A stretch of 64,000 nt of DNA from Escherichia coli (GTDB lineage: Bacteria; Pseudomonadota; Gammaproteobacteria; Enterobacterales; Enterobacteriaceae): the NCBI RefSeq assembly GCF_003018255.1, contig NZ_CP027440.1. One strand, given 5' to 3'. This document shows, in pieces, positions 1 to 6,000 of this stretch. The translations under genes and the position numbers were made by a program. Under the pieces are notes generated by a model. That model saw nothing but the letters and a program-made list of their open reading frames with translations, was not told the DNA's origin and searched no databases. Position 1 is the first letter of the stretch. Each line of letters starts with the position of its first letter.

Positions 1-402
1 TGGCGACATCCATGCATGGGGGTTAGGTTTGCCCTCATAGGGGCCTTCGGTGATCCCTACTGGCGTCACACCCGAAGAGACAATTACTTCTGGAACCCCA
101 TTGAGATGCTGGTAAAAGCGTTGGAACCACAATTCCAGATTCATACCATTGGCGAGGATCAGTTGTGCCCCCTGCGCACGTTTAATATCGCCAGGGGTAG
201 GCTGATACTCATGAATTTCTGCACCGGGCTTGGTTATGGATGAGACTTCTGCAGCATCTCCAGCCACGTTTTTGGCCATATCCGCGATGATGGTAAATGT
301 TGTAATGACCTTGAATTTTTCAGTTGCACTTGCCTGAAATGCGATCGAGCAGGTGAGGGCGAGGCACCCCAAGAGCATGGTTACTTTTTTTATTGAGTGC
401 AT
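1..402 (-). CDS. sitA: Periplasmic metal-binding protein of a Mn/Fe ABC transporter, N-terminal 134 codons; the gene runs off the left edge of the window
   Basis: Hand translation of the minus strand from ATG at 400-402: MHSIKKVTMLLGCLALTCSIAFQASATEKFKVITTFTIIADMAKNVAGDAAEVSSITKPGAEIHEYQPTPGDIKRAQG..., a signal peptide followed by sequence resembling SitA/ZnuA-family binding proteins as I remember them. Open to position 1. Confidence 0.7.
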   Translation of the reverse strand, partial: MHSIKKVTMLLGCLALTCSIAFQASATEKFKVITTFTIIADMAKNVAGDAAEVSSITKPGAEIHEYQPTPGDIKRAQGAQLILANGMNLELWFQRFYQHLNGVPEVIVSSGVTPVGITEGPYEGKPNPHAWMSP

Positions 403-434
403 AATTTAGTACCTATAGTGAGCAAAATTAGAAC

Positions 435-456
435 AAACATAGCAACGGCTATGTTT
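435..456. promoter_or_regulatory. Candidate MntR box: perfect inverted repeat AAACATAGC-AACG-GCTATGTTT, 33-54 bp upstream of the sitA start
   Basis: Palindrome read directly; it matches the E. coli MntR operator consensus as I recall it (AAACATAGCnnnnGCTATGTTT). Confidence 0.6.
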
Positions 457-477
457 TATAGCACAACCTATACAAAA

Positions 478-497
478 TGAAAATGATTATCATTAAC
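478..497. promoter_or_regulatory. Candidate Fur box (TGAAAATGATTATCATTAAC)
   Basis: Core AATGATTATCATT is one mismatch from the Fur consensus core AATGATAATCATT; lies in the sitA upstream region. Confidence 0.5.
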
Positions 498-953
498 AAC
501 TTTGTGGCCCAAAACAGGGATTAGGTTGTTTCCTGCTGGCGACATGGTATTGAGGAAAAAAGCAGGGCAGCTATTAGGCTTTGAAATGACTTTATGAGGA
601 AAATTTTTGATGGCAAAAATGGGGCAAAACGCTGTAGAAGGGGCAAAAAAGGGGCAAAAAAAGAGTGGATTATCGTAGCTTATTGTTGTCGCTGATAATG
701 TTTAACATATTGAAAAATAAATAAAATACTTATGAGTCAGATAGTTGTGATTTTTGCCCTTACTTGTTCAGGTTGTATTGTTCTTTCTTACTAATTTCTT
801 GATTTTGCGACATTTAAAAGCGACTCAATTCGTTATATGGCATCAGAAGAGTATGCGTCATGCCGGAACGCCCAGCATAAGAAATCTGATATAAAAACTG
901 TGGCGTGTATGGTACGGATTAGAGGGGAAAATGTCAGCACATTTGCGAAATGA

Positions 954-981
954 ATCAAAAAGCCCGCAGCAATGTGCGGGC
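954..981 (-). terminator. Rho-independent terminator downstream of uspF
   Basis: Hairpin GCCCGCAGCAATGTGCGGGC (962-981) followed on the minus strand by a T-run. Confidence 0.5.
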
Positions 982-988
982 GTTAGTG

Positions 989-1504
<516 letters not shown>

Positions 1505-1529
1505 TTAGATCAAAGGAGGAAGAATAAGC

Positions 1530-1556
1530 AGAAAAAGCCCGCCATAACAGCGGGCA
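1530..1556 (-). terminator. Rho-independent terminator downstream of ompN
   Basis: Hairpin GCCCGCCATAACAGCGGGC with an A-run on the plus strand (T-run on the minus strand). Confidence 0.5.
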
Positions 1557-1563
1557 GGAGGAT

Positions 1564-2697
1564 TTAGAACTGATAAACCAGACCTAAAGCGACAATATCA
1601 TCGGTAGAGATGCCGTTGGCAGCGTAGAAGCTGTCATCTTCATCCAACAGGTTTATTTTATAGTCAACGTAGGTGGACATATTTTTGTTGAAATAGTAAG
1701 TCGCGCCAACATCGGCGTATTTAACCAGATCTTTATCATCAACACCTGCCGGGTTGTCTGCACCACCGGCAGCGTGCAGGTCACGGCCTTTAGACATCAG
1801 GAAAGAGACTGCCGGACGCAGACCAAAATCAAACTGGTACTGTGCAGTAACTTCAAAGTTCTGGGTTTTGTTCGCAACTGCATAATCGCTGTCGCCAAAC
1901 GGGGTCATGTTACGCGTTTCTGAATACATGGTTGCCAGGTAAATATTGTTAGCATCGTATTTTAGCCCAGCAGTCCACGCGTCTGCTTTATCACCACCCG
2001 CCGCAGTATGGTTAACCTGGTCATTGGTGCGGTCAGAAGAGGTGTATGCCGCACCAGCGCTAAAGCCCATGCCTAAATCATATGTTGTGGAAAGACCCCA
2101 GCCGTCACCGTTTTCATGGCGAACATCACGTCCGTTGTTGGTGCCTTCCTGACCATTACTGGCTCCTTCGTTGTTACCTTGATACTGCACCGCGAAGTTC
2201 AGACCATTTACCAGACCGAAGAAATCAGTATTACGATAAGTCGCGACGCCGTTGGCACGACCAGTCATAAAGTTGTCTGCATTGGTATAAGAGTCACCGC
2301 CAAATTCAGGCAGCATATCGGTCCAGCCTTCGATGTCGTACATTACGCCATAATTACGTCCGTAATCGAAAGAACCGTAATCTGCAAATTTCAGTCCGGC
2401 AAATGCCAGACGGGTCCATGACTGGTTTGTTGAAGATTCAGTGTTGTTTGCCTGAATATTGTATTCCCATTGACCGTAGCCAGTGAGTTGATCGTTAATT
2501 TGGGTTTCGCCTTTAAAACCCAGACGCGCATAGCTCTGGTCGCCATCTTTCGCTGAATTATCAGAAAAATAATGCAGGCCATCAACTTTGCCATACAGAT
2601 CTAATTTGTTGCCGTCTTTATTATAAACTTCGGCTGCATGTGCAGCACCTGCGGCGAGCAGGGCAGGAATTAAAAGTGCCAGTACTTTGCTTTTCAT
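1564..2697 (-). CDS. ompN: Outer membrane porin N (377 aa)
   Basis: Signal peptide [21 protein letters not shown], ends in aromatic QF typical of OmpC/F-family porins; divergent micC lies just upstream. Confidence 0.9.
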
Positions 2698-2924
2698 TGA
2701 ATAAATCCTTTAGTTATTTTATTTGCCTTTTATCCCCATTTCGGGGAGTGAAAACATCCTAAAGGAGAAGTTCAGTTAGCCGATAAATATCATTTGTTAC
2801 GCCTTAAGTAAAACCTTAATCAAATAATTCTACGGAAATGATAATAAGTCTGGTGAATGTATTGAAGATAATACATACAAAATAAAAATTATACTTTTAA
2901 TTTGCTATACGTTATTCTGCGCGG

Positions 2925-3033
2925 GTTATATGCCTTTATTGTCACAGATTTTATTTTCTGTTGGGCCATTGCATTGCTACTGATTTTCCAACATATAAAA
3001 AGACAAGCCCGAACAGTCGTCCGGGCTTTTTTT
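2925..3033 (+). ncRNA. micC: MicC small regulatory RNA, including its intrinsic terminator
   Basis: Sequence GTTATATGCCTTTATTGTCACAGATTTTATTTTCTGTTGGGCCATTGCATTGC...AAGCCCGAACAGTCGTCCGGGCTTTTTTTT matches remembered MicC; located between ompN and ydbK as in K-12. Confidence 0.85.
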
Positions 3034-3062
3034 TAGAATTGGATAATCCTTATCCAGTGCAT

Positions 3063-6000
3063 TTAATCGGTGTTGCTTTTTTCCGCTTTTCCGGCCATTT
3101 GTGCCAGGAAGTCATAGCGTTTTTGCAAATCAGCTGCAGCATCTTTCCATAACTGTTCTGCCACTTCTGGCTGCTGCGAATTCAGACGACGGAAACGCTG
3201 CTCGTGAAGTAACGTTTCTTCCAGTGCTTCTGACGGCGGGCGTGAATCCAGTGCCAGCGGCAGGTTGCCTTCATCGGCTCGACGTGGATCGAAGCGATAT
3301 AGCGGCCAGAAGCCGGTGGCAGTGAGTTGGCGCATCTGGTCGTGACTGAGTGCCAGATCGTAACCATGCTCTTCACAGGGGCTATAAGCGATGATCAGCG
3401 ATGGCCCCGGATACGCTTCCGCTTCCTGAATCGCTTTCACCGTCTGGTTGAGCTGCGCGCCGAGAGAAATCTGCGCCACATAAACATGACCGTACATCAT
3501 CATGCTGACGCCAAGATCTTTACGCGCTTTACGTTTGCCGTGCTCGCCGAACTTAGTTACTGCACCCAGCGGTGTCGCTTTCGACGCCTGACCACCGGTG
3601 TTGGAATAGCATTGCGTATCCAGCACCAGAATGTTGACGTTTTCCGTCAAACTCAATACATGATCCAGACCGCCAAAGCCGATATCGTAAGCCCAGCCAT
3701 CACCACCAATCAGCCAGATTGATTTTTCTACCAGTGCATCTGCGTCACGTAGCAGTTCATGTGCTTCGGCAACATCTTTGAGTTGCTGGCGTAAAGCTGC
3801 AACCTGTTCACGACGAACCTCTGGCTTGGCGTCTGATTTCAACGCAGTTAGTAATTCCGCCGGGATTTTATCGGCAAATTGATCCAGCAGACGCAGCACG
3901 CGGACACGGTGTTGATCGACCGTCAGGCGGAAACCAAGGCCAAATTCGGCGTTATCTTCAAATAGCGAGTTCGCCCATGCCGGTCCACGACCGTTGGCAT
4001 CGGTGGTATACGGTGTAGAGGGCAGGTTACCGCCATAAATTGAAGAACAGCCGGTGGCGTTAGCGATCAACATCCGGTCACCATAGAGCTGAGTCAGCAA
4101 TTTAATATACGGCGTCTCGCCACAACCGGAGCAAGCACCTGAATATTCAAACAGCGGTGTAATCAGCTGCGATGTACGAATATCAATACGTTCCAGTTTG
4201 CTACGGTCGATTTCTGGGAGGTTGAGGAAGAAATCGTAATTGATTTTCTCTTCTTCGACATGTTCCAGGCGAGACATCATATTGATGGCTTTAATCTCTG
4301 GATTCTGACGGTCTTTCGCCGGGCAAACTTCGACGCACAGGTTACAACCGGTGCAATCTTCCGGAGCCACCTGCAAGACATATTTCTGCCCGCGCATATC
4401 ACGCGATTTCACATCCAGCGAATGCAGGCTGGCAGGGGCGTTTTCCATCGCTTCAGGCGGTACCACTTTTGCGCGAATAGCTGAGTGTGGGCAAGCAGCG
4501 ACGCAGTGGTTACATTGGGTACAGAGTTCCTCTTTCCAGATGGGGATCTCTTCGGCGATATTGCGTTTTTCCCAGCGCGTGGTGCCCATCGGCCAGGTGC
4601 CGTCTGGCGGCAGCGCCGAAACGGGGAGGGCATCACCAAGCCCGGCGAGCATCGCCGCGGTAACGGTTTTCACGAAATCAGGAGCGGCATCGGAAACCAC
4701 AGGCGGTCGATTGGCGCTGTGCGGATTAACCGGCTGCAACGGAACTTCTTCTACGGATTCACGCGCCAGCGCCAGAGCCTGCCAGTTGCGCTCCACCAGA
4801 TCCTGACCTTTGCTACTGTAACTTTTGGCAATCGCACCCTGCAATTCTGCGAGGGCGCTATCGCCAGGCAGAATTTGCGTCAGATGGAAAAAAGCCATCT
4901 GCATGACGGTATTAATACGGGCCGCCAGACCACATTCGCGGGCGATTTTCGCCGCGTTAATCACATAGAAGCGCGCTTTTTTCTGGTTTAACACGGCCTG
5001 AACTTCCTGCGGCAAGCGCGACCATACTTCATCTACGCTGTACGGCGTGTTGAGCAGGAAAATGCCGCCAGGTTTTAAACGTTCAGCCATCTGATATTTA
5101 TCGATAAACTGCAACTGGTGGCAGCCAACAAAATCAGCCTGGGAAATCAGATAAGCGGAACGAATCGGCTGTTCGCTCACGCGAAGGTGAGAAACCGTCA
5201 GGCCGCCCGCCTTTTTGGAGTCGTAAACAAAATAGCCCTGTGCGTACCACGGCGTGGAATTACCGATTATCTTGATATTGTTTTTGGTCGCGGAAACGCT
5301 GCCATCACTACCAAGGCCATAAAACAAGGCTTCAAGTTTCGCCGAGTTTGGCAGGGTGTTTTCCGGCAACGGCAGTGACAGATTGGTCACATCATCGTAA
5401 ATACCAACCGTAAAGCGCGCTTTCGGTTTAGCCGCGTTGAGCTCGGCAAATACCGCCAGTACACAGTCCGGGCCAAATTCTTTGGATGAAAGACCATAGC
5501 GCCCACCAATGACACGGGGCAGGGTTTCGCGCTCGCCATTATTAAAGGCTTCTGCCAGTGCGGTCATTACATCCAGATAGAGCGGTTCTGCCTGGGCACC
5601 GGGTTCTTTGTTTCTGTCCAGTACCGCCACGCTGCGTACGGATCCCGGCAGAGCTTGTAGCAAGTGTTTGGCGGAGAAGGGACGGTACAGGCGAACTTTC
5701 AGCACGCCGACTTTTTCGCCACGGGTTAGCAATTCATCAACCACTTCTTCACAGGTGCCAATGGCAGAGCCCATCAGGATAATCACCCGTTCCGCTTGCG
5801 GATGCCCGTAATACTCAAACGGCTGATACTGACGACCTGTCGCGGCAGCGAAATCATTCATCGCCTGTTCAACATGGTCATAGACCGCGTTGTACCAGGG
5901 GTTGGTGGCTTCGCGAGACTGGAAATAAGTGTCAGGATTGGCGGACGTACCGCGGATCACCGGATGTTCCGGGTTGAGCGCCCGGGCGCGATGAGCATCA

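Follow-up and report, generated by a model that had tools for sequence, protein, structure and literature searches.

The window, by which we mean the whole 64,000-nucleotide stretch of Escherichia coli DNA that was analysed, begins inside sitA and continues through an AT-rich spacer into uspF, ompN, the MicC small RNA and nifJ/ydbK. Its sequence matched that of E. coli strain 41 (NZ_CP076285.1) at 100% identity, and in that strain the prophage reads ttcA-intR-xisR-ralR-recT-recE-kilR...rrrD-trkG...sitDCBA. The sitABCD operon is cargo of this prophage and its right-most module, with sitA as the first gene, and it is transcribed leftward beyond the window edge. The sit promoter contains a perfect palindrome, AAACATAGCAACGGCTATGTTT, at ~437-458, which we take to resemble an MntR box, and the sequence ATGAAAATGATTATCATTAAC at ~477-497, which is presumably Fur-box-like. 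The spacer between the start of sitA (401) and the stop of uspF (989) measured 588 bp, or ~490 bp when counted from the sit promoter boxes; an earlier note on this DNA had given roughly 470 bp between the sit promoter and uspF. The spacer was AT-rich, as stated in that note (GC 0.32-0.41 around the repeats described below). A GC-rich hairpin followed by a T-run at 962-981 on the minus strand, just after the uspF stop, fits an intrinsic terminator of uspF. When 380-1000 was scanned for promoters and terminators, only weak consensus matches were obtained, no better than in shuffled sequences; a weak promoter-like match was seen at 616-589 on the minus strand. In an Rfam scan of 1-4000, MicC was the sole match and the repeats gave none. 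Literature placing sit within a Rac or uspF context was searched for and none was found. The coordinates of the features are collected in Table 1.

Table 1. Features at the left end of the window, with positions, strand and the basis of each assignment
Feature	Position	Strand	Basis or remark
sitA 5' part	1..401	-	RefSeq annotation of the identical NZ_CP076285.1; start at 401
Joint of sit cargo and Rac backbone	598..606		homology breakpoints; immediately left of unit 1
P arm of Rac-type attR	604..763	+	common to K-12 Rac, CP-933R and Rac-SA53 whatever the left-hand cargo
String quoted in the earlier note, GATGGCAAAAATGGGGCAAAACGCTGTAGAAGGGGCAAAAAAGGGGCAAAAAAAG	609-663	+	located in the window
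P-arm unit 1, ATGGCAAAAA	610..619	+	degenerate copy of the GGGGCA(A/T) motif (ATGGCA at 610)
P-arm unit 2, GGGGCAAAA	621..629	+	11 bp downstream of unit 1, forming a pair
P-arm unit 3, GGGGCAAAAAA	640..650	+	GGGGCA at 640
P-arm unit 4, GGGGCAAAAAAA	651..662	+	GGGGCA at 651; 11 bp from unit 3
IHF-consensus-like site, TAACATATTGAAA	703..715	+	1 mismatch; pattern scan, consensus match only
Second IHF near-match	720-732	-	pattern scan; between the P-arm units and the core
att core, TTGTTCAGGTTGTAT	764..778		identical in attL, attR and attB (three-way alignment)
Displaced bacterial ttcA 5' end ('ttcC' remnant)	764..813	-	CAT at 811-813 is the start codon as read on the minus strand
Exact IHF consensus, TAATTTCTTGATT	792..804	+	within the ttcA remnant; bacterial counterpart of the H'-like site at attL
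uspF	989-1423	-	right of attR
MicC sRNA	2922-3042	+	Rfam RF00121, 125.8 bits; between ompN and nifJ/ydbK

The earlier note had described four G-run/A-tract units at the sitA-uspF junction, and these were found at 610-662. All four lie on the same strand, each runs into an A-tract, and their starts (610, 621, 640 and 651) are spaced 11/19/11 bp in the GGGGCA register. A spacing of ~10-11 bp, as had been proposed, therefore holds within the two pairs but not between them. The two tandem pairs are about three helical turns apart and hence still in phase. The repeats are real and go beyond chance clustering. The exact GGGGCAAAA occurs three times in the whole window, each time in the repeat cluster, and four same-strand copies of GGCAAAA within 55 bp were seen in none of 300 Markov simulations of the whole window (largest cluster 2) and in none of 20,000 simulations of 600 bp with local composition, in which a cluster of 3 appeared once. 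A-tracts of at least four bases stand in step with the helical repeat here; the AAA/TTT periodicity at 10-11.2 bp placed the repeats first among 21,313 windows of 63 bp. A rough wedge model, indicative only, predicted a bend of ~55 degrees per 31 bp, which is at the 99.9th percentile of the window. The phasing and the predicted intrinsic bend are thus supported by computation.

To place the repeats relative to the prophage end, positions 400-1000 were searched against 5,426 complete E. coli genomes, and the matches fell into three classes. The full-length sitA-uspF arrangement was present in 494 genomes. Rac prophages without sit, as in K-12 and EDL933, matched from ~598-611 onward, and prophage-free genomes with an intact ttcA adjoining uspF matched from 764 onward. 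The arm between these breakpoints and the core was found as a single copy in 962 of the 5,426 genomes. From 764 on, the sequence is identical to the intact ttcA of prophage-free genomes, and at attL the phage provides a substitute 5' end for ttcA. Positions 764-789 correspond to the 26-bp att of the Rac-SA53 record (misc_recomb features) and match the 26-bp att within ttcA reported by Liu et al. 2015 (PMC4632033). On the other side, the homology with DNA upstream of sit on plasmids and at other chromosomal loci stops at ~595-600, and homology to the K-12 Rac attR starts at ~604-608 and continues to the core. As judged from these alignments, the left end of the window is the attR of a Rac-like prophage, and the repeats, which are phage-arm sequence at 108-154 bp from the core, are the outermost part of its P arm.

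This map bears on the suggestion in the earlier note that 600-660 could be an island boundary. The repeats do lie within the boundary zone of a mobile element, but they are not the junction itself, because homology to prophage-free genomes begins at 764, ~100 bp to the right, and the junction is at 764-778. Nor are the repeats a junction feature specific to sit, as they were kept in the sit-less Rac prophages of K-12, EDL933 and Rac-SA53. These three prophages and the sit variants all diverge just left of unit 1, as would follow if the functional attP extended no further than unit 1; by this comparison, different cargo is added just outside the functional attP. An inverted GGGCAAAAATC beside the core (749-759, minus strand) was considered as an extra site and rejected, as it was not conserved in EDL933. 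ON032529.1 ('Salmonella phage SPF_0923', L005), which is presented as a complete phage genome, carries sitABCD and continues past attR into uspF, ompN and nifJ; chromosomal DNA of E. coli type is thus part of the record, which looks like a prophage with wrongly drawn limits.

At the other prophage end, intR and xisR are intact, and the same motif is present in the P' arm. In the interval from the ttcA start provided by the phage to the stop codon of intR, attL reads AAATGGGGCAAATTGGGGGCAAACTTTGCAAC (L004, 10458-10486). Here ATGGGGCAAATTGGGGGCAAA follows directly on the intR stop, 60-78 bp past the core, and two GGGGCAAA units stand 11 bp apart in the strand orientation of the attR units. Over ~53 kb covering the prophage with its flanks, the exact GGGGCAAA has six copies, of which the P arm holds three and the P' arm two; the sixth lies within intR. 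One non-core motif is therefore repeated in both arms, as four units at attR and two at attL, at positions defined by the core of a tyrosine-integrase element. A further sequence, CTTTGCAAC, was tried as a third P' unit in Rac and dropped since it was not conserved in other ttcA-integrated lineages. An IHF consensus is located at attL between the core and the P' pair, and the attL copy of the IHF site coincides with an IHF GeF-seq peak, with none at the attR copy (PMC8407004). The integrase itself, IntR, consists of a separate N-terminal arm-DNA-binding domain (PF12167, residues ~5-69) and a Phage_integrase domain.

We then examined the conservation of the units. In an alignment of five Rac-type arms (the window, K-12, EDL933, Rac-SA53 and SPF_0923), all five kept the four units, and the spacer between the pairs and the flanks varied. 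Unit 1 was kept as T[G/A]GCAAAAA in these diverged arms, and GGGGCAAAAA at unit 3 was invariant in all five; a Rac-like arm from IMG/VR (L230) had a perfect GGGGCAAAAA at the position of unit 1. A search of viral contigs for IntR returned matches that were all at least 98% identical and mostly ended at the int stop, and it was uninformative for covariation. Relatives were instead taken from a tblastn search of phages and from a GTDB scan with one genome per species. Phage phi330, which uses the ompW site and has an intact attP, encodes an Int 43% identical to IntR; three units in tandem, ATGGGGCATCAATGGGGCATGTATGGGACAC, lie in its P arm at a distance of 133 bp from the core, and two, ATGGGGCATACATGGGACAC, lie in its P' arm, where they fall within the 3' end of int, 57 bp past the core. 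The phi330 units read ATGGGGCAT/ATGGGACAC and have no A-tract. In PA5 (Int 43% identical), the P arm, located 117 bp from the end of the record at attR, reads TTGGGGCACTATTGGGGCAAAAtgtggttgtTTGGGGCATATTTGGGGCAAAAAA, i.e. TTGGGGCACTATTGGGGCAAAA-N-TTGGGGCATATTTGGGGCAAAAAA, with a spacing of 11/20/11, and the P' arm has one pair at attL. Klebsiella phage 6 (Int 41% identical) has ATGGGGCATGGATGGGGCAAAG at the int 3' end as its P' arm. The last 862 bp of the record of Stx1a_2054 (LC744191), which probably carries chromosomal flank, gave no motif.

The GTDB scan yielded 79 species loci, with Int 41-98% identical to IntR and several different cores. The pair GGG[GA]CA-N5-GGG[GA]CA was present at the int 3' end, on the strand opposite to int, in 65 of the 79 loci, and on the int strand in none of them. 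Twelve of the other 14 had the pair with one mismatch, giving a relaxed total of ~77/79. The chance expectation was ~0.001 per locus. In the ttcA-integrated lineages, where the pair lies outside open reading frames, the units form conserved islands in a variable non-coding spacer, and an IHF-like TAAnnnnTTGATT is found ~30 bp from the pair on the core side. A search of IMG/VR for the 2+2 pattern returned 56 stretches; ~44 of these were att-like, represented more than 10 lineages by sequence and mostly lay no more than a few hundred bp from the ends of prophage contigs. Two stretches were intact attP regions with a P-arm 2+2 cluster, ~240 bp, a P' pair and then int, and the int of both was 65-66% identical to phi330 Int. 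The 2+2 layout of the window (11/19/11) matches that of PA5 and of more than 10 other P-arm lineages, and many P arms read GGGGCAT or GGGGCAC. With the cores of phi330, PA5 and Klebsiella phage 6 differing, motif and layout track, on these comparisons, the integrase family and not the integration site.

Arm-type sites of a heterobivalent tyrosine integrase are a textbook mechanism, and the GGGGCA(A)n units at 610-662 are very probably the P-arm members of such a set, bound by the IntR of this Rac-like prophage. This reading draws on their location in an att arm, the presence of the motif in both arms, its conservation throughout the family, and the presence and fold of the arm-binding domain in IntR; from these we infer that IntR physically binds the units and that recombination needs them. 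IntR would act as a heterobivalent protein, with its catalytic and core-binding domains at the crossover core and its N-terminal domain docked on GGGGCA(A/T) units. The docking sites would be two 11-bp-spaced pairs in the P arm and one pair in the P' arm, at the distances from the core given above. IHF, bending the DNA at the IHF-like sites between units and core in both arms, would allow the arm-bound integrase to bridge to the core, and this bridging could assemble the intasome on which both excision, attL x attR with XisR, and integration, attP x attB, depend. The phasing of the A-tracts and the predicted curvature would then be a side property, perhaps aiding the wrapping of the arm, because relatives keep GGGGCA without A-tracts.

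The proposed layout resembles lambda attP (P1, P2, P'1-P'3; H1, H2, H'), in which a short non-core motif is likewise repeated in both arms, partly in tandem at about one helical turn, with an IHF-type site between the core and the P' cluster and with sites ~60-160 bp from the core. The N-terminal arm-binding domain of both integrases is built of three strands plus a helix, but that of IntR belongs to PF12167 and not to the lambda type. The lambda arm motif is C/AAGTCACTAT, in contrast to GGGGCA(A/T) here. Layout and stoichiometry also differ from those of lambda, as the P arm has 2+2 units and the P' arm 2, and all of them point the same way; binding by IntR is putative. A closer relative by classification is the IntBPP-1 subgroup of tyrosine recombinases, which comprises the integrases of BPP-1, Stx2a phages and Gifsy-2 and has the AB domain DUF3596/PF12167 (Smyshlyaev et al. 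2021, PMC8138268). IntR and the relatives examined here share the combination of PF12167 and Phage_integrase with this subgroup, and they include the Stx-phage integrases of PA5 and Stx2_14040. That study classifies the proteins as putative integrases and gives no arm-site sequences; the GGGGCA-N5-GGGGCA signature was derived here and is not part of the classification. For Rac itself, IntR and XisR (YdaQ) were found to be required for excision by Liu et al. 2015 (PMC4632033), who studied the same type of element; the Rac-like element here carries sitABCD cargo. Their paper defines the core and an XisR gel shift only; the word 'arm' occurs 0 times in its text and arm-type sites are not mentioned. 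Descriptions of arm sites or of IntR binding were not found in the searchable literature, the coverage of which largely leaves out subscription journals, and the site motif for integrases of the IntR type seems to be previously undescribed.

Another protein that could occupy the P arm is the recombination directionality factor (RDF) XisR, with the repeats as its sites and an Xis filament on the P arm like those at lambda X1/X1.5/X2 or of 186 Apl. The repeats look like the arrays of Xis, Apl and Cox: sites for RDFs are usually found in the P arm as direct repeats with a spacing of one helical turn (PMC7498355), and tripartite direct repeats are described for Gifsy-1 Xis. XisR and the phi330 excisionase, which accompany these integrases, both belong to DUF1233; a comparison of RDF families, tried as a means to separate Int from Xis binding, was for this reason not discriminating. 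As both excisionases are DUF1233 proteins and RDF sites are phased repeats, the comparison alone leaves room for Xis binding in the P arm. In contrast to RDF arrays, the motif is not confined to that arm: the P' arm beside int, where RDF sites are unexpected, keeps it with 11-bp spacing in nearly all family members. The published gel shifts also speak against XisR as the ligand, since it shifted the AttR fragment but not AttM (Liu et al. 2015, PMC4632033). When the primers from the supplement of that study were placed on the window, AttR corresponded to ~596-889 and AttM was found to end at 763 and to include all four units. We therefore regard XisR sites as an unlikely explanation of the repeats. 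The XisR shift appears to need a fragment with the core and the ttcA remnant (the K-12 equivalent of 764-889), which is unusual for an RDF.

The repeats could also be primarily structural, along the lines of the earlier note, and serve as curved A-tract DNA or as an H-NS/Fis landing pad; such a pad would silence or insulate the acquired region. The strongest A-tract phasing in the window, the high predicted bend and the AT-rich context are in line with this, and G641-C655, in our own reading, may resemble a Fis-type G-N13-C site with an A-rich centre. G-runs, however, are atypical of H-NS nucleation sites. The position of the repeats is set by the att core and int and not by AT-rich islands in general, and what the family conserves is GGGGCA and not the A-tract, as seen for the phi330 units and for the many arms with GGGGCAT or GGGGCAC. 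Because of this pattern, curvature does not behave as a conserved, selected property, and neither curvature nor generic binding of nucleoid proteins serves best as the primary explanation; such a structural role is improbable, and we rank it just after XisR binding. A functionless origin, by replication slippage or chance in AT-rich DNA, is very improbable. Long simple tandem arrays of GGGGCAAAAGG, and also of GGGGCAAAACG, do exist in unrelated viral contigs (L187, L206 and L224), where they are not att-like, but the clustering in the window is far beyond chance, the repeats were kept in diverged arms, and the architecture recurs in integrase relatives with unrelated flanks. Least probable of all is that the repeats regulate the sitABCD promoter from upstream, as an activator site or as curved DNA of the UP type. 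They do lie ~110-260 bp ahead of the sitA start codon, on the side of the Fur-like and MntR-like boxes that faces away from the promoter, but they are kept in Rac arms without sit (K-12, EDL933 and Rac-SA53) and are missing from plasmid-borne and other chromosomal sit loci, with which homology stops at ~595-600.

With the units read as IntR arm-type sites, the annotation of the sitA-uspF spacer can be corrected to a complete attR consisting of P arm, core and displaced ttcA 5' end. The prophage of the sit operon has intact intR, xisR, attL and attR. The operon encodes a Mn/Fe transporter associated with virulence and would thus, in ~494 complete E. coli genomes, reside on an element that could be excised, given the intact intR and xisR at its opposite end. 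The signature seems to apply throughout the PF12167 subgroup of integrases. Whether 11-bp-phased GGGGCA(A/T)-N4/5-GGGGCA pairs with a conserved attP layout are the arm-site code of that entire 'IntBPP-1' subgroup is more evenly balanced, and such a code could hold or fail with about equal probability. It would span Rac, many Stx-converting phages and other enterobacterial prophages, and the P side would have 3-4 units, often as 2+2, at ~110-170 bp, and the P' side an IHF site plus two units at ~55-80 bp, often inside the int 3' coding end. If true, the code would provide a simple sequence rule to delimit functional attP, attL and attR and to predict excision competence, including that of sit-carrying Rac-like elements. 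GGGGCA-N5-GGGGCA would be a practical marker for the att arms of Rac-, Stx- and Gifsy-2-type integrases, and it makes a testable prediction for IntR biochemistry.

Two further observations concern the P' units and the reach of the motif. In most IntR relatives, both P' units fall within the 3' coding end of int (L089, 2727-2769; L091, ~2700-2742; and many of L108-L170), so that the DNA sites and the protein tail are coupled. The reverse complement of ATGGGGCAT encodes Met-Pro-His, and the integrases show '...MPH...' C-terminal tails, which the P' units would impose if they are indeed arm sites. Finally, a 2+2 cluster, GGGGCATTTTGGGGGCAG...GGGGCATTTTGGGGGCA, was found in two IMG/VR contigs (L189, 3815-3861; L232, 3150-3196), with a further pair 197 bp off. 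The cluster adjoins an integrase 24-25% identical to phi330 Int, and the GGGGCA arm motif may thus extend to much more distant integrases.
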